From positions 38,311 through 102,310 of the IMG/VR virus record IMGVR_UViG_3300008259_000014: DNA of 64,000 nt. One strand, written 5' to 3'. Each line of letters opens with the position of its first letter. The stretch's first letter is position 1. The notes beneath the pieces are model-generated. The model saw only the letters and a program-made list of their open reading frames with translations, made no database searches and was not told the origin of the DNA. Source of the DNA: a virus. Positions 28,035-62,769 of the stretch are shown piece after piece. A program made the position numbers and the translations under genes.

Positions 28035-28730
28035 ATGGATTCAGAAAAAAAAGAAACAATAAATAAGATTTTATCTATATTTGAGACAGGCAGAGTGCCA
28101 ACTACAGCGGCATATTCAACATGCTCGATACTTAGTGATGGGGCCGGCATTTCATATGGAAAACATCAATCAACTGATAAGTCTGGCACACTTGATCTTA
28201 TCTTTAACGCGTATTGCAAAGCTGGAGGAAAATACTCAGAACAGCTAAAGCCATACTCTACATACATTAGAGATAGCGCCTCTGCAAAATATAGCTCAAC
28301 AAAATCATCACCAGACTGGTGCAAAAAGCTAATAGAGCTTTTAAAGCTTGCTGGAACTGACCCTGTTATGCAACAGATTCAAGATGACATATTCGATTCT
28401 CATTACTGGAATCCTGCATTTGAACATTACAAAAAATGCGGACTACAAACAGCAATAGGTATGCTTGTACTTTACGATACAAGCATACATAGTGGAAGCG
28501 GAAATGTAAATATAATAAGAGGTAAATTCCCAGAAGTCCCACCTTCAATGGGTGGGAGTGAGCAAGCATGGATTAAAGCCTATGTTGCTGCAAGAAAGAA
28601 ATGGCTATTATCATCTCCAAATCCACTTGTTAGAAAAACAATATATAGAATGGAAGAATTTGAAAAGATAATGGCAAACAATAATTGGGATCTTACATCT
28701 CCGTTCTATGTTAGAGGTATAAAAATATAG
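28035..28730 (+). CDS. Lysozyme-fold glycosidase (GH46 chitosanase-like), putative endolysin
   Basis: FETG, DGAGISYG..Q.T, YDTSIHSG. Confidence 0.7.
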   Translation: MDSEKKETINKILSIFETGRVPTTAAYSTCSILSDGAGISYGKHQSTDKSGTLDLIFNAYCKAGGKYSEQLKPYSTYIRDSASAKYSSTKSSPDWCKKLIELLKLAGTDPVMQQIQDDIFDSHYWNPAFEHYKKCGLQTAIGMLVLYDTSIHSGSGNVNIIRGKFPEVPPSMGGSEQAWIKAYVAARKKWLLSSPNPLVRKTIYRMEEFEKIMANNNWDLTSPFYVRGIKI

Positions 28731-28810
28731 CCGTCTGCAAACTGACGCTGTTCTGCTTTGCTTGCAATAAAAAAGGGGAAACAGCAAAAAACCTTTACCG
28801 GCTAATTTTA

Positions 28811-34091: not shown

Positions 34092-34119
34092 CCTATAATC
34101 GGAATAAAACCCGGATCAC
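34092..34119 (-). promoter_or_regulatory. GTGATCC-N15-TATAGG promoter (copy 1)
   Basis: One of four identically spaced intergenic copies. Confidence 0.65.
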
Positions 34120-41056: not shown

Positions 41057-41084
41057 ATTATACGGGGAAAATTTTTCGGATCAC
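41057..41084 (-). promoter_or_regulatory. GTGATCC-N15-TATAAT promoter (copy 2)
   Basis: Same motif and spacing. Confidence 0.7.
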
Positions 41085-45360: not shown

Positions 45361-46899
45361 TTAGCGACTATGAATATCAGAAATAGTCTTGGTGATAAGA
45401 CTCTTCATCTCATCAGAGATGACATCAGCCTTGGCTGGCAGAGAGGTCCACTCACGATTGAGTCGGTCACGCATCTGCTGGAAAGTCTCAGGAATCCAGG
45501 TAGTAATGCCTCGATCATAGACAGTCTCAAGCATATTGAATTCAATGCGCTTATCATGCCATCCAACACCGGTCATTGGAAAGACGGTGGGAACTCCACC
45601 AACCTTATTAACCTGCATATTGCCAGGAAGAGAAACCTTACCAGAGTCAGTCTTAGGAGCCTTCATGATAGCACGCTCCTGACCAGAGACAGTAATGCTG
45701 CAAACCTTGATAGCAGCCTTGAGGGTGTCACGAGTCTGAGACTGAAGGAGTCCTCCACCCATACCGAAAGCAACATTCTGAGCCGACCAGCCATGCTGAA
45801 TGACGGCTTCGAGAATCTCCTTGACCTTGGCAAGATCAAGACCGTCTCCCTGGATTACAGCAGCGCCAGTGATAACCCTATAACCCTTGCTATTAGTAAC
45901 ATACCCAAAGGCATTAGCAAGTCCAGCAAGACCGGTAAGAACCGCATCAGTAGGATCGCCACTATCAGGGCGAAGAACAAAGAGAATACCCTTTGCCTTT
46001 GCTTCATCAACAATCTGAGGCACAATATTCCAAACAAAGTTGGTGTAGTCGTAGCTGTCTGCAACTACAGAGAGAATCTGTCCAGTGGGAGTATTTGCAA
46101 TGAGATGACGAACGGCAGTCAGCTCATCGTCATGAGTGGTCATGACAGAGTGCTCAGAGGCAATAACAGACTCGCCAATGCCAACGCCGTTATTCCACTT
46201 GGTAGCAAGCCAGCCAGCAGTCATGGTATCAGTTCCCTCGAAAGAGAGTAGATGACCCATACCAGTGGTCATAGCAGTCTCGGCAGAGGAGACGCCACGG
46301 CTACCAAAGTCATGGAAGCGGGAAGCAAGAAGAAAGTCGCAATCAGAATCAACAGTCTTGTCAAAGGCATCGCGAATAGACTGCCAGACGTGACGAGACT
46401 TAGTTGCAGTGACGCTAGGCGACCAGATGCGCATAAGCGAAGTCTCAAGCCAAGTAGTCAGCTTGGCAAACTTACCAGAGCCAGTAATGGTAAAGACAGG
46501 AACGCCAGGATAAACTACAGTTCCGTCGCGAAGTGCCTTGACAGTAAAAGGAAGATAACCATTGTGATTATCAACAATATCCTGCCAAAGATCCTTGGGC
46601 CAATTGATTCGAGACTTGGCAACACCATGCTGGGAAAGATAGCTCTCAGCCTCATCAATATCGGCCTGAGTAAAGCGACGGCTCAAGATAGTCTCAATGG
46701 CATAGCGAAGACCGAAGACCACAATACGATGATCATCGTTATTGAGAGGGCCGCGGAAAGTAAAGTAAGCAGTCATGCTATCCACATCTTCGCGATACTG
46801 GAAGTGATGAGTAGCCTTGTAGGTGTCAGTGTCAAGGATGGCGGGAACCTCGCTAGAGGTGAGGCGGCGAATAGGAAACTGAGCATTAGTGAACGACAT
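45361..46899 (-). CDS. nadV: Nicotinamide phosphoribosyltransferase (NAMPT)
   Basis: DTDTYK..H, HDFGSRG, F.GTDT, ASEHS, VADSYD, RPDSGDP, IQGDG, FGMGGGLLQ. Confidence 0.92.
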   Translation of the reverse strand: MSFTNAQFPIRRLTSSEVPAILDTDTYKATHHFQYREDVDSMTAYFTFRGPLNNDDHRIVVFGLRYAIETILSRRFTQADIDEAESYLSQHGVAKSRINWPKDLWQDIVDNHNGYLPFTVKALRDGTVVYPGVPVFTITGSGKFAKLTTWLETSLMRIWSPSVTATKSRHVWQSIRDAFDKTVDSDCDFLLASRFHDFGSRGVSSAETAMTTGMGHLLSFEGTDTMTAGWLATKWNNGVGIGESVIASEHSVMTTHDDELTAVRHLIANTPTGQILSVVADSYDYTNFVWNIVPQIVDEAKAKGILFVLRPDSGDPTDAVLTGLAGLANAFGYVTNSKGYRVITGAAVIQGDGLDLAKVKEILEAVIQHGWSAQNVAFGMGGGLLQSQTRDTLKAAIKVCSITVSGQERAIMKAPKTDSGKVSLPGNMQVNKVGGVPTVFPMTGVGWHDKRIEFNMLETVYDRGITTWIPETFQQMRDRLNREWTSLPAKADVISDEMKSLITKTISDIHSR

Positions 46900-46965
46900 G
46901 ATTATCTCCTTTGGAATTACCAGTTTTTACGCGGCTGGCCCTCGGCAATAATACAGTATTGCTCT
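46900..46965 (-). promoter_or_regulatory. Structured 5' leader, copy A (hairpin plus pseudoknot before the NAMPT RBS)
   Basis: 29-bp identity with copy B; compensatory changes in the adjacent stem. Confidence 0.8.
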
Positions 46966-47014
46966 GTTTGTAAAACCCTTAGCGTTCCTTACTGTGCGGC
47001 AACCGCCGCACCAT

Positions 47015-47042
47015 AATATAAACGGAAGGGTTCCTGGATCAC
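47015..47042 (-). promoter_or_regulatory. GTGATCC-N15-TATATT promoter (copy 3), drives NAMPT
   Basis: Same motif and spacing; GTGCGGC/GCCGCAC 5' hairpin. Confidence 0.7.
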
Positions 47043-47090
47043 GATTTTTATTATAGCTCTAACTTGGCGCAGAATTACGCCCTTAGACCG

Positions 47091-47531
47091 TCAAGAATGG
47101 CGAGGAAACTTCCGCTCTTTGATTCCAAGGCTGATGAGATATTCTCTCATTTCTTTTGGAGTCATATCGAACTCAAAGTGACCTTCCATATTATTTATAC
47201 CAAGAAATTTTTCATCTTTTGAAATAAGATGTACTTGTCTAAAAGTATCATCAATGCATTTGTTTTTATAAAAAAAATCTTCTTCACATATCCAGGCATA
47301 ACTAAGATTGGGGTATATTTGAACGCCTGATGATTCATACCACTCTTCGTCTTGCATGTATTCCATAGAAAAGCATATATGGCCATTCTTTAGGTTGGAG
47401 CACTTATTAACTACAAGTCTTGCCCAAGGAAGGGCAATATCATCTCTCCATCCATGACCAGTTTCAGAATCTCTATCTTCTATAAAAATATAATTTTTTG
47501 AAGTAACTACATTATCCATTTGTCCACTCAT
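47091..47531 (-). CDS. Hypothetical protein
   Basis: ORF. Confidence 0.55.
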   Translation of the reverse strand: MSGQMDNVVTSKNYIFIEDRDSETGHGWRDDIALPWARLVVNKCSNLKNGHICFSMEYMQDEEWYESSGVQIYPNLSYAWICEEDFFYKNKCIDDTFRQVHLISKDEKFLGINNMEGHFEFDMTPKEMREYLISLGIKERKFPRHS

Positions 47532-47542
47532 AAATAGTATAA

Positions 47543-47860
47543 CTAGTCTTCTTCAATTGGTATAAGATACTTGGTATCTCCCGAATCACTGATATACATT
47601 GGATATGAGTCGCCTACTTTTTCGTTTACAACCTGATAATAATTGAACAAATCAGACCCCTCTTCGGAGTATGGAGAATACCATCTATCTCCACAGCATG
47701 GGCAGTCTATACCCATTGATACTCCTCCAAAGTATACTCCAAAATATATTTGGGCTGCGGAGTCTGCTTTTTCTATATTTTCTGCCTCTATAAATATTCT
47801 TGTATACTCTCCTTTGAATTCACCAAAAGAGTTATTTTGACTGTAACAGTAGATGGGCAT
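47543..47860 (-). CDS. Conserved phage protein with DCPCCGDRW motif
   Basis: QNNS.G.F...IEA...GVYF...DCPCCGDRW. Confidence 0.65.
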   Translation of the reverse strand: MPIYCYSQNNSFGEFKGEYTRIFIEAENIEKADSAAQIYFGVYFGGVSMGIDCPCCGDRWYSPYSEEGSDLFNYYQVVNEKVGDSYPMYISDSGDTKYLIPIEED

Positions 47861-48108
47861 TATCTCTCCATTATATTAAATTTTATCCATAAGGACCCCC
47901 CCATAGATAGGACTGATACAGATAAGCTATCCGAATCAGACTTGAATTTTAAATCTTTAATCCTACTCATATTAAGAACCCATATCGTAGATTTATCTAC
48001 ATTCTTGATTGCCTCATATCTAAATATGACATGATCATTCTCAATCATGATTATGACAACATCACCATAGAATTCATGTATAGCCCAGCAGCCAGGATAC
48101 AAAGACAT
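47860..48108 (-). CDS. Hypothetical protein
   Basis: Coupled ORF. Confidence 0.5.
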   Translation of the reverse strand: MSLYPGCWAIHEFYGDVVIIMIENDHVIFRYEAIKNVDKSTIWVLNMSRIKDLKFKSDSDSLSVSVLSMGGSLWIKFNIMER

Positions 48109-48110
48109 TA

Positions 48111-48422
48111 TTATGTAGGCTCAATTTCTTTGGGAGTAATCATTACTTCGATAAACTTTTCATTGTAAAAAATCTTGCAAACAAATACATTGCATTCAGT
48201 TTCAGAATTAATAGAGTCATCTTCGGAAGTAAGAGTGCTGTAAGCCAAATCGCTAATGGCATTGATATTGTAAATAGAATTTTCTAGATATTTATCTGCG
48301 GAAATAAGCATACAAGGCTCGTTGTCAAGCCTCCAGCTTTCCTTTTGAGAATACCAGTAAAGTTCAGGCTTAATTACAATAAAACGACCAATGCAGGATT
48401 TAAGTCTTTCTTCGCTATTCAT
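48111..48422 (-). CDS. Hypothetical protein
   Basis: AGGA RBS. Confidence 0.55.
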   Translation of the reverse strand: MNSEERLKSCIGRFIVIKPELYWYSQKESWRLDNEPCMLISADKYLENSIYNINAISDLAYSTLTSEDDSINSETECNVFVCKIFYNEKFIEVMITPKEIEPT

Positions 48423-48437
48423 ATTAATCCTAGATTG

Positions 48438-49466
48438 TTACTTGCAAAAGCTAATGCAATCTTTTGCAATATGGAAATGATCTTCCATAAATAGCTTTGC
48501 ATTCATTGCATCAGTAAGCATGGAAATTGGAAGCCATGCAACACCGGCTGCATCGTCAGCGGCAGTAACATCAATTTCATACTTATCAGGAATCATCCAT
48601 GCAAAAGCATGGGTAATAGTTCTGCCGCGAGTAGAGCGATTAGGATGATCAAACACCTTTGAACTCTTAAGCCACTCTTCCATCATTGGAAGCTTGGCTC
48701 CAGAATTAGGATTTCTAACTGTAAACAGAGTTTCCTCTCTGAGCTCACGAAGTGCAGATTCCTTAATAAACTCACCACTCTCAATGAAGCCTCCAGGCAT
48801 AGCATAAAGGCCCTTACCAGGCATACCCTTTCTAATTACTGCAAGAAAGCTGCTTCTATGTACTACAACAGAATCGACAGTCACAAAGATGGGAGGAAAC
48901 GGAGACTTGCTCCAGGCCTGCTTATAACGCTTGATATAAGCCCACTCCTCAAAAAGGTGATTAGCAGTAGTCTTAAAAAATCTCATGGTAATGTCATACG
49001 ACTTGCTAGAAAAAGCCCAGTGAAGAGAGGTATTCTTACCTTCAAAGATTGCCTCACGAACCATGGTTGCATTGATGGTATGACCTTTTTCATCAGTATA
49101 CTGAGGGCAGTCCACAACCTCAATATCATCACCAAAGATTTTTAGATAGTAAGTGCTTTCATCCTTATTAGAGCCTACAATGCAGGAGTTCTTGCAGTCG
49201 CTAATAATCTCTTTAATCTGACTAACCCAAAGCCTATCATCATATGGATAATCGCAAATTGGTATGACAGTTACATTTGGAAACTCAGATTTAATAATCT
49301 CTGCACGCTCTTCAAAAGTAAGAGGATTCTTGATAGAGCGAGCTACGTTTGCCGAGCCAACAAGAATTGTAACTTCCTTTCCAAGCTTTAGAGCAGACTG
49401 GATAAGGAAAGCGTGTCCAATATGGAAGGGCTGAAAGCGACCAATAACAAAAGCCTTATTCTTCAT
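48438..49466 (-). CDS. nadM: Bifunctional NMN adenylyltransferase / Nudix ADP-ribose pyrophosphatase
   Basis: IGRFQPFHIGH, NPLTFEER, NATMVR, Nudix box PGG...E.......RELREET, DDA. Confidence 0.92.
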   Translation of the reverse strand: MKNKAFVIGRFQPFHIGHAFLIQSALKLGKEVTILVGSANVARSIKNPLTFEERAEIIKSEFPNVTVIPICDYPYDDRLWVSQIKEIISDCKNSCIVGSNKDESTYYLKIFGDDIEVVDCPQYTDEKGHTINATMVREAIFEGKNTSLHWAFSSKSYDITMRFFKTTANHLFEEWAYIKRYKQAWSKSPFPPIFVTVDSVVVHRSSFLAVIRKGMPGKGLYAMPGGFIESGEFIKESALRELREETLFTVRNPNSGAKLPMMEEWLKSSKVFDHPNRSTRGRTITHAFAWMIPDKYEIDVTAADDAAGVAWLPISMLTDAMNAKLFMEDHFHIAKDCISFCK

Positions 49467-49530
49467 AATATCTCCTTGGTATTACCAGTTTTTACGCGGC
49501 TGGCCCTCGACAGCAAGAAAGTGCTGCTCT
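49467..49530 (-). promoter_or_regulatory. Structured 5' leader, copy B (before the NadM-Nudix RBS)
   Basis: See copy A. Confidence 0.8.
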
Positions 49531-49539
49531 TTTAACTAA

Positions 49540-49818
49540 CTACTCAAGTGTAATGATTTTTTCTTGAACCAAGGAGCTTATTGCAGCTTCCTTTGCTTCC
49601 TTGAGGTTTTTACAGATGCCGGTATCAAGATAACCGCCATCAAAGCTGTAACTTTGCCAATAGTATATTTCATTGTAACTTGGAGAGGTGACAATAGTTG
49701 CAACATAATAGTTGCTGCAAAAAGAGCCACGAATCCTTAATGTAAACCAGGTTTGACCTGTAGTCACATCCTCTTTTTGTACCCAGAAAAGCTCCGGGTC
49801 TGGAAGAATGAGCTTCAT
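49540..49818 (-). CDS. Hypothetical protein
   Basis: ORF. Confidence 0.55.
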   Translation of the reverse strand: MKLILPDPELFWVQKEDVTTGQTWFTLRIRGSFCSNYYVATIVTSPSYNEIYYWQSYSFDGGYLDTGICKNLKEAKEAAISSLVQEKIITLE

Positions 49819-50247: not shown

Positions 50248-50275
50248 AATATATCCCGGCTAAATCCTGGATCAC
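50248..50275 (-). promoter_or_regulatory. GTGATCC-N15-TATATT promoter (copy 4)
   Basis: Shares AAAAATCGTGATCCAGGA with copy 3. Confidence 0.7.
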
Positions 50276-53129: not shown

Positions 53130-53205
53130 TGGTGCCCAAAACCGGGTTCGAACCGATGACCTACTGCTTACAAGGCAGTTGCTCTACCAACTGAGCTATT
53201 CGGGC
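53130..53205 (-). tRNA. tRNA-Thr(UGU)
   Basis: Cloverleaf, loop CTTGTAA, CCA. Confidence 0.92.
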
Positions 53206-53364
53206 AATATTTTATTGTTGTAAATATGTTCTAAATATCATATTTATACCGCAAACAGAATTAAAAATTTGTAAATTTAATATAATCTGCGGAATAATTG
53301 ATACTAAGCTTTCTGAGTAAAGAAGCCCCTGGAATAATAAAAAATTCCAGGGGCTTTTTGTAAG

Positions 53365-53456
53365 TGGCGGATAGTGAAGGACTCGAACCTCCGGACCCCT
53401 TTCAGGGCTCATCGCATTTCAAGTGCGCGCCGTTATGACCACTTCGGTAACTATCC
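53365..53456 (-). tRNA. tRNA-Ser(UGA)
   Basis: Long variable arm, loop CTTGAAA, GCCA. Confidence 0.92.
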
Positions 53457-53468
53457 TAATATTTTAAA

Positions 53469-53544
53469 TGGTTGATAAGATAGGAATCGAACCTATAACC
53501 TACGGAGTCAGAGTCCGTCGCTCTGCCAGTTGAGCTACTCATCA
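53469..53544 (-). tRNA. tRNA-Gln(CUG)
   Basis: Loop CTCTGAC, CCA. Confidence 0.9.
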
Positions 53545-53594
53545 ATATAAATATATTATACTTAATACATTTATTAAAAACAAACTATTTTAAA

Positions 53595-53670
53595 TGGTAG
53601 TCGAAGAGGGGCTCGAACCCACGACCTAATCGGTGTAAACGATTTGCTCTCCCAGCTGAGCTATTCGACT
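53595..53670 (-). tRNA. tRNA-Val(UAC)
   Basis: Loop TTTACAC, CCA. Confidence 0.92.
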
Positions 53671-53673
53671 GTA

Positions 53674-53955
53674 TTAATCAAAATAATATTCATCGTATGG
53701 AATTCCTTTATTTGTTTTAAAGGATCTATAATGCTTTATTAAGAATGCTCTATTATTAATAGAATTAATATCTTTTTCAGTACCTTCATAAACTTTCTTT
53801 ATTGACCAAACCCTATCGTCTCCCTTTAGTTTTATATTGCTAAAATTGGAAATAGATTTTTGAATCCACAAAGACTGCGAGGCATTTCCAGATTCTATAT
53901 CTGCAAAAATATACTCTTCTGGAAAACTCATATTATCATTAAGAAATTCGTGCAT
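53674..53955 (-). CDS. Hypothetical protein
   Basis: ORF. Confidence 0.5.
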   Translation of the reverse strand: MHEFLNDNMSFPEEYIFADIESGNASQSLWIQKSISNFSNIKLKGDDRVWSIKKVYEGTEKDINSINNRAFLIKHYRSFKTNKGIPYDEYYFD

Positions 53956-54589
53956 GATTCTTTATAGCCTCTATTGTTGCCATACTTTCACCTGGTACAT
54001 GAAGAATTCCAACACCTCCTGCCTTATTCCAGGCGTCAATTGTAGAAAATTTATCATCTATTAAAATATGTGGAACAAGATCGCCGTCAACAACAGATAA
54101 AGCGTATTTATATTTCATCCTGGCTGGAGTTATATAGACATTTTTTGGATTTGGCTTTAGCCATTTTCTTGCCCAGGCAGTCTTACCTTCTATTGCTGGA
54201 GTTCCGATAAATGAAACATTCTGATCAATTGGAGCAGTAAGCATATTTACAGGTATGCCTAGAGAATTTATAAATGGCCACAATTCATTAATTCCATCCT
54301 CTAGTGGGATAAGGCTAGAGAAAAATAGTCCAGGATTACAGCCTATAGCTGTAAAAAGAAGGTCTCTTGCTCTCTGAGAGTCCATCATAAATTTTTCATG
54401 GAGATACAATTCAGAGTTTATATTTTTATTGAAGAAATCAATATTTTCATTGACAATTTTTTCTACTTCGTAATTTATAAAAATCTTCTCCTCTCCTGCT
54501 ACAATTGACTTCATTAGTTTTTCTGCAGCAGGAAAGAAATCAGCTACAACTCCGTCCATATCACAAAAAATAGAAACTGGCTTTTTCAT
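53939..54589 (-). CDS. HAD 5'(3')-deoxyribonucleotidase (NT5C-like)
   Basis: DMDGVVADF, LTA, GK..W, LIDD, W..AGG.GILH. Confidence 0.82.
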   Translation of the reverse strand: MKKPVSIFCDMDGVVADFFPAAEKLMKSIVAGEEKIFINYEVEKIVNENIDFFNKNINSELYLHEKFMMDSQRARDLLFTAIGCNPGLFFSSLIPLEDGINELWPFINSLGIPVNMLTAPIDQNVSFIGTPAIEGKTAWARKWLKPNPKNVYITPARMKYKYALSVVDGDLVPHILIDDKFSTIDAWNKAGGVGILHVPGESMATIEAIKNHARIS

Positions 54590-54599
54590 GAAAATCTCC

Positions 54600-54992
54600 T
54601 TACCAATGTTCGATTATTGTTCCGCTTTTTACAGCATAATCCATAAGCTGATCTTCTGTGGGCACAAACATCTCATTATCAAACAAATCTTTCAATCTAT
54701 TAGCCCTTCTTATTGCTTTTTCTTCTTTTTCTAATGGTCCATTTAATGATACAGCAGAATCATCAATTGAGCCAAATAATAACCTTGCGTAATAAAGGTC
54801 TTTTTGATAATCTTTAACAACACACAAGGTCGCATCGGAGCCTATCATTCCATAGTAAAACGATGCTGAATTTGGACCAACATAGAAGATTTTGGTATAT
54901 TGCGCATAAGCATCTTGCGTCGCTATCCATCTTGCCCTCTTGCTTATTTCAGAAAGCAAATCATAAGTAGGTATATTTGATAGATCTTCCAT
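54600..54992 (-). CDS. Hypothetical protein
   Basis: AGGTG RBS. Confidence 0.55.
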   Translation of the reverse strand: MEDLSNIPTYDLLSEISKRARWIATQDAYAQYTKIFYVGPNSASFYYGMIGSDATLCVVKDYQKDLYYARLLFGSIDDSAVSLNGPLEKEEKAIRRANRLKDLFDNEMFVPTEDQLMDYAVKSGTIIEHW

Positions 54993-55016
54993 AGTTTCAC
55001 CTTTTTTATTTAAAAG

Positions 55017-55103
55017 CGGATGCGAGAGGAGTCGAACCTCTGGAACCTTTTACAGTTCGCAGCTTTAGCAAAGCTGAGCAATAGACCACTCTGCCACGCA
55101 TCC
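55017..55103 (-). tRNA. tRNA-Ser(GCU), no encoded CCA
   Basis: Long variable arm, loop TTGCTAA. Confidence 0.9.
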
Positions 55104-55109
55104 TAATAA

Positions 55110-55562
55110 TTATTTGCAGTTTGCATTATACCATTCTTCATCATCAGTCTCTCCGCACTTACAGGCTTTTTGATAACTCATATCATTAAAAGACTTAAGC
55201 TCTTCTTTTTTATGATGTGTAAGAGGGATTGGAAGTGAATAGTAAAAAGCCTCAGTAGCTTCTTCTATCAAGAGCTTTAACTCTTTCTTGTCTTCGCTGG
55301 ACAATGGTTCTTTTTCAGACTTCATAATAATATCTTTTATTAAGCCAATTTTATTTTTGGTCCAGCCAATATTAAGTCCTATGTGACCTTCCCACATCTT
55401 ATAAGACTCTTTTTTTTCTTCATCGCTAGAAGCCCACTCAATATTATCTAACACCAAATCATATATATTTTTTGACATCTCTTTAAACTGAGGCTTGCTT
55501 GGCTTTCTTGGCGCTCTTTTTGCTATCTTAGTTAGCTCTAAAATTCTGCTTGCTCTACTCAT
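55110..55562 (-). CDS. Hypothetical protein, probable late/virion protein
   Basis: TGCTAAT upstream; MSRASRILELTKIAK leader. Confidence 0.55.
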   Translation of the reverse strand: MSRASRILELTKIAKRAPRKPSKPQFKEMSKNIYDLVLDNIEWASSDEEKKESYKMWEGHIGLNIGWTKNKIGLIKDIIMKSEKEPLSSEDKKELKLLIEEATEAFYYSLPIPLTHHKKEELKSFNDMSYQKACKCGETDDEEWYNANCK

Positions 55563-55607
55563 TAGAATCTCCAATAGAATCTTTTATATTAGCAAACAAA
55601 TATAAGA

Positions 55608-55679
55608 TAGGGGTACCTGGACTCGAACCAGGAAACAGAGGTTCAAAGCCTCCAGTGTTGCCAATTACACTATACCCCA
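55608..55679 (-). tRNA. tRNA-Gln(UUG), no encoded CCA
   Basis: Loop CTTTGAA. Confidence 0.88.
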
Positions 55680-55705
55680 TCAACTTTCTTTTTATTATTT
55701 ATATA

Positions 55706-55779
55706 TGGCACCGCCCCAGAGAATCGAACTCCGATCAAGTGATTTGGAATCACCTATTCTACCATTGAACTAGAGCGGT
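55706..55779 (-). tRNA. tRNA-Trp(CCA)
   Basis: Loop TTCCAAA, GCCA. Confidence 0.9.
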
Positions 55780-55802
55780 ATATTTCGCCTCCTCGTGATA
55801 AT

Positions 55803-55830
55803 ATATTAACCAGGGATTAGTTGGCGGCAA
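55803..55830 (-). promoter_or_regulatory. Sigma70-like promoter TTGCCG-16-TAATAT for the tRNA run
   Basis: Hexamers plus upstream A-tract. Confidence 0.6.
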
Positions 55831-55874
55831 TAATTTTTTTATTTTTTTTCAAAGGCCGCATTATTTGGCCTAAT

Positions 55875-56840
55875 TTAAGCCAATGACTCAAGAATCTTGA
55901 TAAGATTATTATCACTTACATCTGCAAATGTAATGTGCTGACCAGGCTTTAAGCTATTGATAATTTTGCTTGATCCAATCTGGTTGCGCTTATAAGATTT
56001 AGGGTTAAAAATTGATGAGAACTGCTTTATATATTTATCATCGTGAGGTGCAGCCACCCTTTTGAAGGTGCACTCTGCAACTCTACGCTTAACAATCTCA
56101 TTAAGGCCGTAAAGATGGATAAGCTTGTTGGACTTAGATACATCAAAGTCAAAAGGAAGTACTGCGGTGTACCCCTCCCAGTTAGCAACAATGTGGTCTT
56201 TCTTTTCTGCACCTGTAATAATAATTTTTACCCAAAAACTTGTTCCAGGCTTCATATAACGATAACCACTATTCAGTGATTCTACAATCCAATGAACATA
56301 CATTGATCTATTTAGTTCAAACAAAAAGTAATAATTATCATTATATTTTATGATTTTAGACTTCTCTAAATTATCTTTATAATTGCTTTTTTCTTTTTGT
56401 GCTTTATAGTAATTAAGAATTCCTGTATTAGCATCAACCCAGAAAATACCGCTTCTATAGTTACGAGCACCAATGTTAATGCCCTTTGAGTTATAGAGAA
56501 TATCCCCTTCTTTTACGATATCTTTCTCAACCATATAATCAAGATGCTGATGCACGTGTATCTGCAAAGTTCCATCCTTTGGAAGAACTTTGCAAATCTC
56601 AGAATAAACATCATCCCAAAGCATTTTTTTATTGCTACACTTTCTTAAAAATCCTTTAATTGGAGATAGAAAGTCGTTTAGCTGCTTTGTCTTTTTACTT
56701 TTAAGCTCAAAAGCGATAGAGGCAACCTCGTCTTCTTCTGGCTTTTTACGAAGCCTCTTTCTTACAGATATCATTCCTTTTTCGTATTTACCGCCAGTTC
56801 TTGGCCTCTCACAGATAATCTTTTTTGCGTCCTCCCTCAC
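55875..56840 (-). CDS. Hypothetical basic protein
   Basis: GTG start behind GAGGGG. Confidence 0.6.
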   Translation of the reverse strand: MREDAKKIICERPRTGGKYEKGMISVRKRLRKKPEEDEVASIAFELKSKKTKQLNDFLSPIKGFLRKCSNKKMLWDDVYSEICKVLPKDGTLQIHVHQHLDYMVEKDIVKEGDILYNSKGINIGARNYRSGIFWVDANTGILNYYKAQKEKSNYKDNLEKSKIIKYNDNYYFLFELNRSMYVHWIVESLNSGYRYMKPGTSFWVKIIITGAEKKDHIVANWEGYTAVLPFDFDVSKSNKLIHLYGLNEIVKRRVAECTFKRVAAPHDDKYIKQFSSIFNPKSYKRNQIGSSKIINSLKPGQHITFADVSDNNLIKILESLA

Positions 56841-57119
56841 AGCGTACCCCTCTATTTTTATATTATTAGACAGCTATAAGCCGTAGAAAAGTGGTATCAT
56901 TTTTTTCTAATGTATTATTATTTAGCCGGCTAATAATATATATCCTTCTAAATTAGCTGACTAAGTTCAATATGTAGAAAATCAGAATGAAGTGTAAATC
57001 TTAAAAATTGCGGGAACTAAGCCGTGCAAAAACTTTGCCCCGCTATCGAAAGGTAGATTATTAGACAGAAGTCTATTAAAAAATTACATTGGCAATGCTA
57101 GGTAAGCATCCCCAAACTA

Positions 57120-57695
57120 TTATTTCAGACTTTTAATTATTTCATTTAAATGAAAGAGAATTGGTATTCTGAAACTAATTGAGGGACCTGTAAAAAAGAA
57201 TGTATCATATTCAGGTCTTTTTGTTATAATTGCAGAAAAATCAGCTTCAAATCCATGAGAAATTAACTTTTCAGCATTGCTAATGCTATTATAAGAAATT
57301 TCATTATTACAAATTTCTCGCAACTCTTGAATTGCATCCAGCTCTTCTTTTTCAGCTGAATCATCAACCGCGTAAATAAAGAAATGCTTTGGGTTCTTAC
57401 TATCAAGATCCCATTTATAGACCTCTTCTACGTAACCAATTAAAAAGCTCCAGCTAGAGCATATGCTCTTAACATAGATACCGTTTGCAAGCTTCTCTGC
57501 GTAAAAATCAGCATCGCCAAACCAACTCTCACCCTCACAAAGTAAAGGATAGACTTTATAATATGCTTGAAACAAATCTTCAAGCAATTGACTAGTTGCT
57601 TTAGCCAGGAAGGCCCTTGTCTCTTCTGAGCTGTTTAGGTAATCTCTTGAGTAAAGCTTTTCAATCTGAATTGGTTTACTAAATTTTTCAATCAT
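57120..57695 (-). CDS. Hypothetical protein
   Basis: GAGG RBS. Confidence 0.6.
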   Translation of the reverse strand: MIEKFSKPIQIEKLYSRDYLNSSEETRAFLAKATSQLLEDLFQAYYKVYPLLCEGESWFGDADFYAEKLANGIYVKSICSSWSFLIGYVEEVYKWDLDSKNPKHFFIYAVDDSAEKEELDAIQELREICNNEISYNSISNAEKLISHGFEADFSAIITKRPEYDTFFFTGPSISFRIPILFHLNEIIKSLK

Positions 57696-57711
57696 AAAAC
57701 CTCATTTATGT

Positions 57712-57900
57712 TTATCTACTTGGGTTTGCTCCGGCATCAGTAGCAAGATTCCAGCGATTCAATCTTTCTAGATTTTCTTTTTCTACAATGCAGGAGTTAC
57801 ACATATTGCAGGGAAGAAATCCAGCATGATTATAATAATTTGAATGCTTGTGATAAGAGCATTCGTATGCTTCATACTTCTTCTTTTTAGAAGACTTCAT
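57712..57900 (-). CDS. Small Cys-containing protein
   Basis: CNMCNSC. Confidence 0.4.
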   Translation of the reverse strand: MKSSKKKKYEAYECSYHKHSNYYNHAGFLPCNMCNSCIVEKENLERLNRWNLATDAGANPSR

Positions 57901-58186
57901 AGTAGTCTGAATGTCTCACTCCCCACTTTTCCAATTCATTTTCAAGTTCATCTTCAGTCAGGATTGGACTGAAATAAACATAACATGCAGTTGTGCGACG
58001 CACACCAGTCCAATAACTATCGGTTCTTCCGATTTCTTTTAAAAACTGTTCGATTGCTTCGTATCGCTCATCTTCTAAAATGTCGACTCGTTTGTGATCC
58101 AAAACATCTGGAATAACAAGCCTGTCTTCAAGAATGGTCATTGGCTGAGCTGCCTTAACAAGTTGTCTGATTTTTTCGTAGTCCAT
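57887..58186 (-). CDS. Hypothetical protein
   Basis: AGGAG before MDYEK. Confidence 0.55.
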   Translation of the reverse strand: MDYEKIRQLVKAAQPMTILEDRLVIPDVLDHKRVDILEDERYEAIEQFLKEIGRTDSYWTGVRRTTACYVYFSPILTEDELENELEKWGVRHSDYYEVF

Positions 58187-58187
58187 A

Positions 58188-58619
58188 TTAGACTCCTGGT
58201 TGTTGTGTTTTCTTTTCAAGCTCTAAAAGAATCTCATCTTGAATTGAGCATTTTAAAATGCCGTATTCTTTTCCTACGCTATCGGGCCAGCAATCTGATA
58301 TTTTTGGACCGTGACCCCACTTTTTAAATCTTTCGTTAAAAATATCAACAAATGCAAGAAATGCTTCTTCATAAGTTTTATGAATAGAAATAATTTCTGC
58401 ATCATAAACGTATGATCCGCTGCCTCCTAAAATAAAAACTTCTTTTGCGTCATCATCTATATGACTTGCTTCAATTTCTATAACTGGTCCGGTAGTTGCG
58501 TATCTATACTTTCTAAGAAGCGGAGCGTTCTCCTTGTCCCTTAAAAGGCCACAAAGCCTGTTAGTGTCGTCCCATCCAGTTGGAGCGCCACCCGAATAAA
58601 CTGCAAATATTTTTGACAT
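58188..58619 (-). CDS. Hypothetical protein
   Basis: AAGGA RBS. Confidence 0.6.
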   Translation of the reverse strand: MSKIFAVYSGGAPTGWDDTNRLCGLLRDKENAPLLRKYRYATTGPVIEIEASHIDDDAKEVFILGGSGSYVYDAEIISIHKTYEEAFLAFVDIFNERFKKWGHGPKISDCWPDSVGKEYGILKCSIQDEILLELEKKTQQPGV

Positions 58620-58636
58620 ACTTTATCCTTTTTATT

Positions 58637-59287
58637 TTAGATTGACTTGTTTTTTTGAGAACATAACGAAAGAACTCGTGAAGCTTCAGTCTTTGCTCCG
58701 TCCATAGGGATTTCATATAAGTTAATCAAATAACCGTCGTCAAGATTAACACGAATGATTAATCTTTCAGCGTTTAGAATTGTTATTAAATCTGATGAAT
58801 TAAGATAATACATTCCAGGTATTTCGATTTTAGTTGAAAGATTGGATGTCCATTTATCAAGAGTAAGTATTCCATCATCTTCAACTCTAGAAGTCCAAGA
58901 GGATATTAGTTTTGCTGAGCTGCCGCTAACTGCATACACTGTTATTACATCATCTTCATTTTTACTAGAAATCCTTGTTTCTCGTTTTAAAAGACCCACA
59001 TCTCTTTTAGAGAATAAGGTAATGATTATACCAGGCCCATTGGACGTTACATAGCAACTATACAAAAAACTAGAATATGCGACATCTTTATATATAAAAT
59101 CTCTTGTAATTGAATAGTATGAAGTCCCATCATTCGCAATCCCGTTTTTTAGCTCCCAGTAAGGCTGGGTTGGCTTCCATTCAGAGTCTTTGACTAGCGG
59201 TTGCGTAATTGAAGTTGAAGAATGATTATCATCTGCAATTGCGTTTGCAAATAGCAAGGACAGCGTCAGCAAAATAGACGAAAGCAT
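58637..59287 (-). CDS. Secreted protein with signal peptide
   Basis: MLSSILLTLSLLFANAIA-D. Confidence 0.6.
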   Translation of the reverse strand: MLSSILLTLSLLFANAIADDNHSSTSITQPLVKDSEWKPTQPYWELKNGIANDGTSYYSITRDFIYKDVAYSSFLYSCYVTSNGPGIIITLFSKRDVGLLKRETRISSKNEDDVITVYAVSGSSAKLISSWTSRVEDDGILTLDKWTSNLSTKIEIPGMYYLNSSDLITILNAERLIIRVNLDDGYLINLYEIPMDGAKTEASRVLSLCSQKNKSI

Positions 59288-59328
59288 AAAGTCTCCTATT
59301 TTTAATTATAGACAGCGTCAAATTAAAA

Positions 59329-59405
59329 TGGTACGAGTGGATGGATTTGAACCAACGACCCTCACGGTATCAGCGTGATGCTCTAACCAACTGAGCTACA
59401 CTCGT
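59329..59405 (-). tRNA. tRNA-Ile(GAU)
   Basis: Loop CTGATAC, CCA. Confidence 0.9.
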
Positions 59406-59410
59406 ATAAA

Positions 59411-59485
59411 TGGTGGGAACGAACGGACTTGAACCGATATCACCTGAGCTTCAGTCAGGGGCTCTACCAATTGAGCTACAATCCC
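59411..59485 (-). tRNA. tRNA-Phe(GAA)
   Basis: Loop CTGAAGC, CCA. Confidence 0.85.
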
Positions 59486-59527
59486 ATAGATTCCGTTTTT
59501 TTTGGAACGGTTTTCAGAAACCCTAGA

Positions 59528-59602
59528 TGGTACACCTAACGGGAATCGAACCCGTCATTCCGGCGTGAGAGGCCAGCGTCTTAACCGATTGACCATAGGT
59601 GC
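59528..59602 (-). tRNA. tRNA-Glu(CUC)
   Basis: Loop CTCTCAC, CCA. Confidence 0.9.
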
Positions 59603-59608
59603 AAGAAA

Positions 59609-60037
59609 CTATCCCATTATTCCATATCCACCAATATCTATCCCCTGCTCTTGTTCGCAAAACTCATAAGCAAGCTGTGGATTTCCGACTTTTGCAATTT
59701 TCAGCCAAAGATTTATATAGTCATCACTGAAAATATCTTCACCAAATCCATAATCACCCTCATCATAATCATCATCATCAAGATTAGGCACATGATCTGC
59801 TAGATCATCAAAACCCGTGTCAAAGAATTTTGACATTTTTTTAATCATGTCAGGGGGAAGCTGCCTACTATCATACTCTGAAAACTGATCTGCAAATCTT
59901 ATTCCAATAATTTCTTCGCCCTTTTTAAAAGCAGCCTCTAACTCTTTAGAGGTTAAATTACATGAGATCCTTACATTACTATGTATTCCGTGGCCATCAC
60001 CACCTGGATCCCCAACAGATAATACAACTACATTCAT
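59609..60037 (-). CDS. Hypothetical acidic protein
   Basis: GD..GDGHG...IGGYG pattern. Confidence 0.6.
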   Translation of the reverse strand: MNVVVLSVGDPGGDGHGIHSNVRISCNLTSKELEAAFKKGEEIIGIRFADQFSEYDSRQLPPDMIKKMSKFFDTGFDDLADHVPNLDDDDYDEGDYGFGEDIFSDDYINLWLKIAKVGNPQLAYEFCEQEQGIDIGGYGIMG

Positions 60038-60063
60038 TTGTAATTCCTATTTATTTGTAAAAA

Positions 60064-60139
60064 TGGAGCGAGAGATGGGACTCGAACCCACAACAGCAAC
60101 CTTGGAAGGGTTGAACTCTACCAATTGAGTTACTCTCGC
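60064..60139 (-). tRNA. tRNA-Gly(UCC)
   Basis: Loop CTTCCAA, TCCA. Confidence 0.92.
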
Positions 60140-60741
60140 ATTTTGTTAGTACTTTCTAAATTCTTTTCATAAAATTTTATCCACTTTCTTACTGCATTAT
60201 CTGAAACACCATATTTCCTTGCAACAGAGCAGTAGTTTCCCTCTTTCAATTCTAAAATCAAATCTTCATAAGTTGGTCTTTCAACTTTCCTTGCCCTTAT
60301 CTTTGAGCAGCTTACTGAGCACGTAGAAAGTTTATTATCTTTTTCAGAATTACATATGGGGCAGTATGTTTTTTCCTTTTCCTTTTCTTTTGTTAAAACT
60401 TTCTTGTTTTTATTTTCTAGTCTAGATGGAGGTATATATTCTGAGTTAAATTTTGGAATCTCAGATGGAATACTTACCACTCCTGCATGAAACTCTCTAT
60501 GACAATTAGCACAAAGAAGTATGCATTTTTTTGCTTCGTCTAGAATCTTACCCCAGCTAACTATAGAGCCTCTAGCTCCACCAAGACCAAACTCTTTTTC
60601 GGCTGGATTTATATGGTGAAATTCAAGTGCATCCATACATTTCAAATATTTACATATTGCACATTTACCACCAAATCCTTCCACCAATCTTTTCTTAGTA
60701 TTCTCTCTCCACTTTTTTACCCGTTCCGAACTCTTGGACAT
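60130..60741 (-). mobile_element. HNH homing endonuclease with C-terminal HTH
   Basis: CAIC, LEFHH, LLCANCHREFH, KYGVSDNAVRKW; start behind GGAG. Confidence 0.85.
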
Positions 60742-60797
60742 ATTAACTCCATATGATAATACATCCTTATTAGTATATTTATACTTATATTTTGAAA

Positions 60798-60874
60798 TGG
60801 CGGCCACGGCAGGGTACGATCCTGCGACCTAACGATTAACAATCGTTCGCTACTACCAGCTGAGCTACATGGCC
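60798..60874 (-). tRNA. tRNA-Asn(GUU)
   Basis: Loop TTGTTAA, GCCA; atypical T-loop ATCGTAC. Confidence 0.88.
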
Positions 60875-60886
60875 ATTTAAACTTTA

Positions 60887-61198
60887 TTATGTTAAACCTA
60901 ACTCTTTCAACTCTTTATTGCTAATAAGCTCTCCACCTTCTTTCCCCGGAAGTAGCCTGTAAGCATAATAGATTTTTTTATAACTAATATTTCTCATATG
61001 CTCTATTAGAGGAATACAATCAAAAATTCTCTCTGTATTCCCATTATCCATCTTTCCCTTCTCTATTCTCTTCCAATTCTTTATCAACTTTGCAGGATCA
61101 GCAGATTCTCCACTATCAAATTGATCCGTTACAATAGAGGGGTTGTTAATCACCATCTTTGTTATTTCTACCTTGCACATGACGCTAGATACGCTCAT
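60887..61198 (-). CDS. Hypothetical protein
   Basis: AAGGA RBS. Confidence 0.55.
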   Translation of the reverse strand: MSVSSVMCKVEITKMVINNPSIVTDQFDSGESADPAKLIKNWKRIEKGKMDNGNTERIFDCIPLIEHMRNISYKKIYYAYRLLPGKEGGELISNKELKELGLT

Positions 61199-61283
61199 TC
61201 TAAATCCTTTGGTTATATTGTTTTTTCTAACTATTGAAGCCAGATCTCTGACTTGAGCATGGATCTACGAGATTTGATATGAA

Positions 61284-61395
61284 TTCCCACCCTCAACCCT
61301 ACTAATGGAGCATAGACTCCAAACTTTCTGACCGTGCTAGTGTAGGATGTCCCCGGTTGCGAGGGATGCTGGTTATCCAGCGGTTTGGATGGGAA
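61284..61395 (-). ncRNA. Candidate structured ncRNA of unknown family
   Basis: GC-rich non-coding island; 9-bp closing stem enclosing several helices. Confidence 0.55.
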
Positions 61396-61398
61396 AAG

Positions 61399-61487
61399 TG
61401 GTGGGATGGAGAGGATTCGAACCTCTGATGGTATTTCTACGTCGGATTAAAAGTCCGCTCCCTTCGGCCAACTCGGGACACCAACCC
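61399..61487 (-). tRNA. tRNA with Lys(UUU) anticodon and long variable arm
   Basis: Loop CTTTTAA, ~14-nt variable region, ACCA. Confidence 0.8.
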
Positions 61488-61498
61488 ATTATATAAAG

Positions 61499-61575
61499 TG
61501 ATATGAGTGACAAGACTTGAACTTGAAACCTTTGCGGTATCAGCGCGAGGCTCTAACCAATTGAGCTATATTCGT
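61499..61575 (-). pseudogene. Degenerate tRNA-Ile(GAU) copy
   Basis: Similar to 59329..59405 but acceptor stem mismatched, ends ATCA. Confidence 0.65.
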
Positions 61576-61593
61576 ATGTTACTTTTAATATAG

Positions 61594-61670
61594 TGGCGGT
61601 GTTAACGGGACTTGAACCCGTGGCCTTCGGCGTGACAGGCCGACGTTCTAACCAACTGAACTATAACACC
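61594..61670 (-). tRNA. tRNA-Asp(GUC)
   Basis: Loop CTGTCAC, GCCA. Confidence 0.93.
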
Positions 61671-61681
61671 GTTATACTAAC

Positions 61682-61756
61682 TGGTGGAGCGAATGGGACT
61701 TGAACCCATAAGAACGCCGTGCAAAGGCGCCAGTTTTCCAATTAGCTTATCACCCC
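61682..61756 (-). tRNA. tRNA-Ala(UGC)
   Basis: Loop TTTGCAC, G3:U70, CCA. Confidence 0.88.
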
Positions 61757-62551
61757 AGTTTTATATTTTTCATCCCAATTTTTTATTCTATCTAATAATT
61801 CTTCATAACTAATAATATTTTTCTTTCCTTTTGAAACATTTTCATTATGCTTAATCAATCTGCAATTTGCAGGATGTGCTATTATTAAAGGATCTATATT
61901 ATTCTCATAGCCATATATTACAGACACCATATGATCTCTAGACACTCCATCTAGATTGTTTCCTCTGTTTTTAGCTTTGTACCACCCAAGTTCATTTAAA
62001 ATTGAAAAGTCAAACTCATCAGGATATAAGTATACTGAAAATTTAAATGAACATTTTGATCTGTAATTTTTCTTTACATCAGATCCTTTTTTCGACTCTT
62101 TTAATTTTGTGAGACAATAGTTATCACAAGTCTTTCTTTTTAATTTTAAATTAATTATCTTCTTGCATACTATACACTTCTTCTTTTTAAGACCCCTTTC
62201 TTCTGCTGCTTTTTCTAATGAAGCGCTTATTTTTTGTTTTGTAGATTCTGATACACTCTCTCTTGTATTTGAACAAGATCTGCTGCAGAAATATGCTTTT
62301 TTTTCTGTAAATATATTTTTATGCTCAAATATTTCAAAAGATTTATTGCATATATTGCAGAAAACAACGTATTTCTCTATACATCCAAATAATTTAATCT
62401 TTCTATTAAATTTTGCATTAGAAATACTTTTTGATCCCTTATCACCATTGGTTATGTTTTTTACACACCATCTTACATGGTTTGAAAAAACCCTTCCCTC
62501 TTCGTTTTCAAATATTTTATTACAATATATACATAACCTATCTTTCTTCAT
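61742..62551 (-). mobile_element. HNH-like homing endonuclease
   Basis: Zn fingers, FCSRSC, SRDH...HPANC...EN..KG. Confidence 0.8.
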
Positions 62552-62572
62552 CTACAATTCCCCAGAATTAAA

Positions 62573-62646
62573 TGGTCGAAGCAGCCAGATTTGAACTGGC
62601 ATCCACCTGTTTCCAAAACAGGGACTTTGCATTAAGCTACGCCTCG
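62573..62646 (-). tRNA. tRNA-Pro(UGG), divergent D-loop
   Basis: Loop TTTGGAA, C1:G72, ACCA. Confidence 0.8.
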
Positions 62647-62692
62647 ATTTATTTTTAGAAGCTTTTACGCTGAAAATTTCAAATAACTAAAA

Positions 62693-62769
62693 TGGTCCTC
62701 TTGCTGGGACTCGAACCCAGTTTTTTCCTGTGAAAGAGGAAGGTCCTAAACCGCGTAGACGACAAGAGG
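62693..62769 (-). tRNA. tRNA-Glu(UUC)
   Basis: Loop CTTTCAC, CCA. Confidence 0.88.

Follow-up and report, generated by a model that had tools for sequence, protein, structure and literature searches.

A conserved hairpin-pseudoknot leader RNA before the NAMPT and NadM-Nudix genes of a clade of uncultured phages

Introduction

The locus described here raises the question of how a phage sets the expression of its genes for rebuilding nicotinamide adenine dinucleotide (NAD+). It lies in a stretch of 64,000 nucleotides (nt), positions 38,311 to 102,310 of IMG/VR virus record IMGVR_UViG_3300008259_000014, which is referred to below as the window. In this window a gene for nicotinamide phosphoribosyltransferase (NAMPT) and a gene for a nicotinamide mononucleotide (NMN) adenylyltransferase fused to a NUDIX hydrolase (NadM-Nudix) are each preceded by the same short element. 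The original prediction, made from the letters of the window, described the element as a hairpin followed by a compact pseudoknot and proposed it as a new riboswitch or operator. Here we report a computational analysis of this element, its relatives, its fold and its possible function.

NAMPT and NMNAT-Nudix together make up NARP2, a recently recognised phage counter-defence against NAD+-depleting immune systems, among them Thoeris, DSR, SIR2-HerA and SEFIR. According to published work NARP2 is metabolically costly, overproduces NAD+, consumes phosphoribosyl pyrophosphate (PRPP) and is toxic when cloned, and feedback control of the pathway would therefore pay. A full-text literature search returned no paper in which NAMPT, nadV or NARP2 of phages is linked to a leader RNA or riboswitch, and none on how phages regulate NARP2. 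The conserved leader on both NAD genes suggests that their expression is most probably controlled after transcription, and offers a testable object of about 70 nt.

The leader element in the window

The NAMPT gene (512 amino acids; 45361-46899, minus strand) was recognised as an open reading frame (ORF) with Pfam matches to PF04095 (E 1e-34) and PF18127. The NadM-Nudix gene, whose product of 342 amino acids joins an NMNAT-type cytidylyltransferase to the NUDIX hydrolase, lies at 48438-49466 on the same strand and matches PF01467 and PF00293. As had been predicted, the ORF list places four genes between them; all four are small, one containing DUF7296 and three having no Pfam match.

Re-reading of both leaders upheld the central observation that the same element stands before the two genes, at the positions and with the sequence first reported. 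Copy A forms the NAMPT 5' untranslated region at 46900-46965 and copy B lies at 49467-49530, both on the minus strand, and they match covariance model R1 (described below) with 71.6 and 68 bits, respectively. Copy B occupies most of the 73-nt gap past the stop codon of the ORF at 49540-49818. The two copies share a 29-nt block, CGAGGGCCAGCCGCGTAAAAACTGGTAAT, which is identical at 46916-46944 and 49481-49509 on the minus strand. A pattern search of the window, and likewise of the whole record of 102,310 bases, found these two copies only. Even when up to three mismatches were tolerated the window had no further match, and none of 100 shuffled sequences contained two matches.

Each copy consists of a 5' hairpin, P1, a 25-nt core that folds as a pseudoknot, and a spacer leading to the ribosome-binding site; the core is identical between the copies, and P1 and the spacer differ. 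In copy A, P1 (46945-46962, minus strand) pairs GCAAUA with UAUUGC around the loop CUGUAU and ends directly at core base C1. In copy B (49510-49527, minus strand) the stem is GCAGCA/UGCUGU and the loop CUUUCU. The stems differ by two double changes and by one G-C to G.U exchange at the closing pair, in agreement with the compensatory differences first noted, and the closing G.U pair fits the mRNA strand only.

The core occupies 46920-46944 in copy A and 49485-49509 in copy B, on the minus strand. Its parts in copy A are the S1 5' strand (46940-46944), the single G of loop L1 (46939), the S2 5' strand (46935-46938), the S1 3' strand (46930-46934), the loop L3, UAAAAA (46924-46929), and the S2 3' strand (46920-46923). 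The corresponding parts in copy B are 49505-49509, 49504, 49500-49503, 49495-49499, 49489-49494 and 49485-49488. Downstream of the knot, a conserved UAA is followed by an A-rich single strand that carries the ribosome-binding site 8-11 nt on. The Shine-Dalgarno sequence of NAMPT is AGGAG (46906-46910, minus strand), which lies outside the fold, and that of NadM-Nudix is GGAG (49472-49475, minus strand). Between CUGG and AGGAG there are 9 nt in copy A and 8 in copy B, as the prediction had it.

Distribution among related phages

A single-protein search of IMG/VR found no close relatives of the window's NAMPT, and relatives with 69-82% identity were found in a large protein collection. A metagenome scan queried with an alignment of the eleven closest NAMPT proteins returned 16 loci. 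The element stands directly before the NAMPT start codon in each of those loci in which NAMPT is 73-78% identical to that of the window. These loci, L083, L084/L085, L086/L088, L087, L092, L093 and L096, are related metagenomic phage contigs and represent six further lineages. As in the window, L093 has a second copy (L093b) before its NadM-Nudix gene, which is 67% identical to that of the window; the NadM genes of L083, L084 and L086 have no copy. The element thus stands on every NAMPT gene of the clade but on only two of six NadM genes. It was found in no locus whose NAMPT is 60% identical or less, and the 80 loci returned by an IMG/VR search with the NAMPT alignment, all at or below 60% identity, were without the motif.

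Model R1 was built from ten distinct copies and run against 1.19 Mb, comprising the window and 96 loci. It returned 12 matches, all of them known copies and all directly 5' of NAMPT or NadM-Nudix, which bears out the proposed association with NAD genes; in other viral NAMPT loci it had no match at E <= 5. Pattern searches of IMG/VR gave no match to the full core. The partial pattern CGAGNNNCNNNCGCGTAAAAAC occurred in four stretches, all within coding sequence and lacking the pairings, and CCAGNNNNNTAAAAACTGGTAA in seven, none with an S1 partner. A scan of 185,579 prokaryote genomes, one per species, with a 28-nt pattern yielded eight stretches, all judged to be chance. Seven of them are the same place in related Pseudomonas genomes, with no downstream start site and with the S1 and S2 pairings broken, and the remaining one is in a gut metagenome-assembled genome. 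Among cultured phages nothing was found by megablast of the 4.6-kb region or by blastn of the leader, and the nearest NAMPT is 38% identical. The leader family is therefore real but, in the scans of IMG/VR, prokaryote genomes and cultured phages, confined to one uncultured phage clade.

Secondary structure and covariation

In the predicted fold, stem S1 pairs C1-G15, G2-C14, G4-C12 and G5-C11 around an A3.G13 mismatch, and stem S2 pairs C7-G25, C8-G24, A9-U23 and G10-C22. Loop L1 is the single base G6, L2 has no bases, and the A-rich loop L3 consists of U16 and A17-A21. This is the H-type pseudoknot originally drawn, with CGAGG/CCGCG as S1, CCAG/CUGG as S2, a one-base L1 and the loop UAAAAA, and it is now backed by exchanges in both stems of L087.

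Between lineages, four-fold degenerate third positions of codons for the same residue are 0.30-0.46 identical, that is, saturated, and despite this synonymous divergence the 25-nt core is without any change in five of the six lineages. In L083, G6 is replaced by A and one G of S2 is lost. The L087 core has seven changes, all at predicted paired positions: pair 5/11 is changed from G-C to C-G, 7/25 from C-G to U-A, 9/23 from A-U to G-C, and 10/22 from G-C to A.C. Three pairs, the top pair of S1 and two pairs of S2, are therefore exchanged on both sides; positions 1-4, 6 and 12-21 are untouched, and every unpaired position of the core is kept. Covariation supports both stems, with all three exchanges supplied by L087.

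In alignment A3 the pseudoknot leaves 97.5% of cells paired with three pairs double-changed, a result equalled in 1 of 500 shuffles, and controls in which the partner strand was slid by 1-3 columns had 22-33% of cells paired and no double changes. Pairing in the alternative register 5-12/6-11 is ruled out by C5-G11 in L087 and by A6 in L083. The loop lengths suit a classical H-type knot with coaxial stems, L1 crossing the 4-base-pair (bp) S2 with 1 nt, L2 being 0, and L3 running along the 5-bp S1 with 6 nt. A G6.U26 pair added by RNAalifold was rejected for the knotted state, since it would use up the single base of L1.

P1 is free in sequence, with eight unrelated stem sequences among the copies. 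Its 3' end abuts core base C1 in 9/10 copies; the exception is L096, where abutment requires a U.U mismatch to be tolerated and the computed fold stops 4 nt short. Shuffle tests of the individual copies ranged from 24/2000 to about 700/2000, which is of moderate significance, and their crude contiguous-stem measure fails on L096. The homologous stems of copy A, copy B and L093b differ by double changes (A-U to C-G between copy A and L093b), and several P1 stems contain G.U pairs that fit the mRNA strand only.

These comparisons support an H-type pseudoknot of two interleaved stems with sterically feasible loops, all of its double changes coming from L087. The leader is thereby shown to be a cis-acting RNA in which a free-sequence P1 hairpin is stacked on a sequence-constrained 25-nt H-type pseudoknot, and it is very probably a functional, uncatalogued cis-regulatory RNA.

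Transcription and ribosome-binding-site context

Upstream of leader A lies a putative promoter-like box, GTGATCC-N15-TATA (47015-47042, minus strand). A four-site alignment places its other copies at 34092-34119, 41057-41084 and 50248-50275, also on the minus strand. An A-tract precedes each box and a GC-rich hairpin follows it, and the four look like a phage-specific promoter class, two of whose members would drive NAD genes. The box at 47015-47042 would give NAMPT a transcript of its own, beginning about 105 nt before the start codon with the GC-rich hairpin GUGCGGC-GGUU-GCCGCAC (46994-47011, minus strand), which lies just 3' of the box at the predicted 5' end. Transcription from the box at 50248-50275 would place NadM-Nudix third in an operon and copy B between two cistrons, where it starts just past a stop codon.

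Because no terminator was found 3' of the motif, attenuation is improbable, and the most probable level of control is translation or the stability of the mRNA. The 3' end of the knot, at about -19 to -21, coincides with the margin of the 30S footprint. Two other uses of the leader were considered and rejected: a leader peptide, since there is no conserved start codon and two frames contain stops, and a frameshift stimulator, since copy A has no upstream ORF.

A small hairpin, separate from the motif, is predicted in some NAMPT loci (L084 3866-3895, L086 7983-8012 and L096 2077-2106), where the Shine-Dalgarno sequence pairs with codons 2-4 (AUG UCG UUC CC). This hairpin is specific to NAMPT and does not occur in the NadM leaders.

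Comparison with known RNA families and operators

Rfam 15 gave no relevant match at the gathering score on the whole window, at E <= 10 on both leaders, or at E <= 5 on four related loci; the NAD+-I, NAD+-II and preQ1 models had no match to the leaders at E <= 10. The element is not a member of NAD+-I, NAD+-II or preQ1-I, because these models do not match and the defining features of the families, when tested, were not found. The original prediction had said as much for the two NAD+ classes.

The NAD+-II riboswitch (pnuC motif) was described by Panchapakesan et al. 2021 (PMC7749635), and its crystal structures show an A5 strand forming a minor-groove triplex, followed by a C whose partner is the G adjoining the helix 3' strand on its 5' side, the resulting pair (G33:C46) holding nicotinamide; a G33A change abolishes binding (PMC10085692). 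The phage element resembles NAD+-II in standing in the leader of an NAD-related gene, in a second helix that would stack coaxially, and in an A-rich tract leading to GGAG. Also shared are a short helix rich in G and C, whose 5' strand holds GAG, and after it a U turn, exactly five A's and a C; the G10:C22 pair of the phage element is placed as G33:C46 is at nicotinamide site 1. In 10/10 copies the layout is CCAG followed directly by CCGCG-U-AAAAA-C, which reproduces the helix, A5 strand and C-G pair of NAD+-II; the triplex itself is putative.

In other respects the two differ. The phage element lacks the internal-loop bases of NAD+-II (GUUGCGUCC...ACG), its two base quadruples and its P1a stem. 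No counterpart of G6 U7 U8 G9 C10-C14 ... A31 C32 G33 was found, the phage S1 strands being separated by G6 and CCAG only. Its second helix is a plain 4-bp Watson-Crick stem that excludes the ribosome-binding site, and an extra hairpin stands 5' of the knot. The leaders contain no CUCC or UCC partner for a pseudoknot to the ribosome-binding site of the NAD+-II type, and the motif leaves the Shine-Dalgarno sequence unpaired. The genes are phage NAMPT and NadM-Nudix, as against pnuC of Streptococcus. NAD+-I (nadA motif) is built of tandem ADP-binding domains, whereas the phage element is a single 25-nt knot.

In preQ1-I, a very small pseudoknot of the H type, a first stem of 5 bp is joined by a short second one, and the third loop, rich in A, lies in the minor groove of the first. 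The phage element is a very small knot of the same layout near a ribosome-binding site, but with an L2 of 0 it has no cytidine to pair with preQ1, its second stem ends 8-11 nt before the ribosome-binding site, and its gene context is unrelated. Similar arrangements exist among protein-read operators. The gene 32 operator of T4 and RB69 has a 5' H-type pseudoknot followed by an unstructured A/U-rich stretch with the ribosome-binding site, which the single-strand-binding gene 32 protein coats cooperatively. The phage element shares with it the setting in a phage mRNA leader and the order of pseudoknot and unstructured ribosome-binding stretch; here, however, the genes encode metabolic enzymes and the spacer measures only about 20 nt, and there is no relationship in sequence. 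The E. coli thrS operator is a pair of hairpins resembling tRNA anticodon arms, read by a naturally RNA-binding protein, and bound threonyl-tRNA synthetase competes sterically with the 30S subunit. Like it, the phage leader is a structured element ending just upstream of a free ribosome-binding site, but it has no resemblance to tRNA.

Of the general marks of a riboswitch, a conserved aptamer-like element before genes of one pathway is present (12/12 model matches), and an expression platform, as a terminator or as pairing over the ribosome-binding site, was not found. By analogy, the element may be comparable in its working to small leaders with H-type pseudoknots such as preQ1-I, SAM-II and NAD+-II and, on the protein side, to those of T4 gene 32 and thrS. 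What is new here is a structured translational-control leader outside the catalogued families; the general kind is already known.

Leaders on the NAD genes of sister clades

A different leader is found on the same genes outside the pseudoknot clade. It is a hairpin closed by a G-C pair with a loop of 5 nt, AUAGA or AGAGA, often followed by a hairpin presenting GGAG, and it occurs in 26/80 IMG/VR NAMPT loci as against 0/80 control windows. It lies 20-120 nt before NAMPT or NadM in L003, L005, L016, L027, L031, L053, L089, L090, L097, L098 and others, and before both NAD genes in the nearest outgroups (L089, L090, L097, L098 and L003). Near the NAD genes of the pseudoknot-bearing loci, the window included, it was not found. 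The two leader types share their genes, their place before the ribosome-binding site and often the presence of two copies per genome, but their architecture is entirely different. Absence of the AUAGA/AGAGA leader from all pseudoknot loci indicates that in this clade one type of leader has been exchanged for the other on these genes. Unrelated leaders on the same genes in sister clades point to repeated, independent invention of RNA control for the NAD pathway.

Two NadM-Nudix genes that lack the pseudoknot leader (L084 1920-2120 and L086 6150-6345) are preceded by a putative tRNA-like sequence and a conserved hairpin, GUGACAA(A/G)CUUGUCAC.

Function of the leader

We infer that the leader sets the translation level of NAMPT and, in some phages, that of NadM-Nudix. 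The reading that we tentatively prefer, at somewhat less than even confidence, is that the element is a candidate riboswitch of the OFF type for a nicotinamide nucleotide, NMN or NAD+. The ligand site would lie at the S1/S2 junction, beside the G10:C22 pair and under an A5 minor-groove triplex. Ligand binding would lock the pseudoknot and remove the A-rich tract as a landing site for the ribosome, and when host defences destroy NAD+ the knot would loosen and translation of the costly pathway would rise. This suggested link to host NAD+ depletion is drawn from the published work on NARP2. A sensor is favoured by the fact that both target genes encode enzymes of one pathway, by the cost of that pathway and by the likeness of the layout to nicotinamide site 1 of NAD+-II. 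It is also favoured by the lack of a conserved regulator gene beside the motif: only NAMPT and NadM are common to the window and the related contigs, and the ORFs that separate the two in those contigs are unrelated to one another and without Pfam matches.

Binding of a nicotinamide nucleotide would make the element a new NAD+ riboswitch class and the first case of a phage sensing a metabolite that host immunity destroys; to our knowledge, NAD+ riboswitches are unexpectedly rare. The fullest form of this proposal, which we regard as doubtful, is that the leader is a third, structurally distinct NMN/NAD+ riboswitch class with the smallest natural aptamer known (25 nt plus the stacking hairpin). 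It would turn on NARP2 only when host immunity has depleted NAD+, and would in that case be a virus-encoded RNA sensor of host immune state.

Several observations weigh against a nucleotide sensor. The knot and the Shine-Dalgarno sequence are 8-11 nt apart, the latter lying 3' in an A-rich single strand outside the fold, and ensemble folding of nine copies found no conserved pairing of the motif with the ribosome-binding site, the one alternative pairing seen in copy A being absent from the others; there is therefore no classical expression platform. A 25-nt knot with an L2 of 0 offers few unpaired bases for a selective pocket. At 10/22, the pair proposed to hold the ligand, L087 has A.C, and the matching G33A change in NAD+-II abolishes binding. 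All covariation within the core comes from this single lineage, the one informative lineage among ten distinct copies from six lineages. The family is narrowly distributed, in one clade, and the 5-nt-loop hairpin of the sister clades looks more like a protein site.

About as good a fit is a translational operator bound by a protein, an explanation that we rate only a little below the sensor. The knot would be bound by NAMPT itself, which is the simplest case, by NadM-Nudix, or by a regulator whose gene lies in another part of the genome, itself of roughly 330 kb. From about -20 the bound protein would sterically bar the 30S subunit from the ribosome-binding site, as threonyl-tRNA synthetase does on thrS, and a substrate or product that binds the enzyme could relieve the block. 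No copy, not even L087 with its rewritten S2, varies in the A-rich loop or at the four lower positions of S1, which suggests base-specific reading. With the fold stopping 8-11 nt before the ribosome-binding site, the bulk of a protein would explain repression better than a small ligand does. The placing of the motif on every NAMPT of the clade and on only 2/6 NadM genes, and the small AUAGA-loop hairpin on the same genes in sister clades, a type of site that proteins read, point the same way. Phages have such operators, namely the pseudoknot operator of T4 gene 32 and the gp43 and RegA operators. Against a protein stand the lack of any Pfam RNA-binding domain in NAMPT or NadM-Nudix and the lack of a conserved extra gene beside the motif in the related contigs. 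If a protein does read the element, this would add a newly found example of a metabolic enzyme that controls its own mRNA.

It is unlikely, in our judgement, that the element is a constitutive structural leader without any sensing, in which the rod of P1 and pseudoknot shields the mRNA 5' end or intercistronic junction from nucleases, or positions the ribosome as an enhancer of translation. The ribosome-binding site is left free, as such a leader would have it, and P1 may be a 5'-terminal mRNA hairpin in L084, L086, L092 and L096, which have a TATAAT box about 7 nt upstream of it; a consensus scan, however, did not call a full sigma-70 promoter at these boxes, and copy B stands within an operon and not at a 5' end. 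Moreover, a stabiliser of a generic kind would have no need of 25 nt that stay invariant while synonymous positions are saturated, nor would it be restricted to two genes of one pathway in about 150 kb of related phage DNA. Least probable by far is an element acting as DNA, such as a phage promoter or the operator of an NAD-responsive repressor (NrtR, NiaR or NadR). The element is short, conserved and upstream of NAD genes, and NrtR boxes are known upstream of bacterial nadM-nadV operons. The core is not palindromic, though, its interleaved pairings cannot be explained by repressor half-sites, and the G.U pairs of P1 suit just one strand. Each genome has no more than two copies, which lie downstream of promoter-like boxes, and copy B sits right behind a stop codon inside an operon.

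Other features of the window

An open frame of 254 amino acids, antisense to NAMPT, extends through leader A (46252-47016, plus strand). A gene here is very improbable, as the frame's 36-51% similarity to other loci only mirrors that of NAMPT on the opposite strand (73-78%). CheckV estimated the 102,310-base source record to be 31% complete, which would imply a whole phage genome of roughly 330 kb. An array of 18 tRNA genes, all on the minus strand, spans 10 kb of the window (53133-62769) and fits a jumbo phage. At 28728-28804, also on the minus strand, Rfam detected a CyVA-1 RNA (RF02965) with 59.2 bits, above the gathering score of 41.4.

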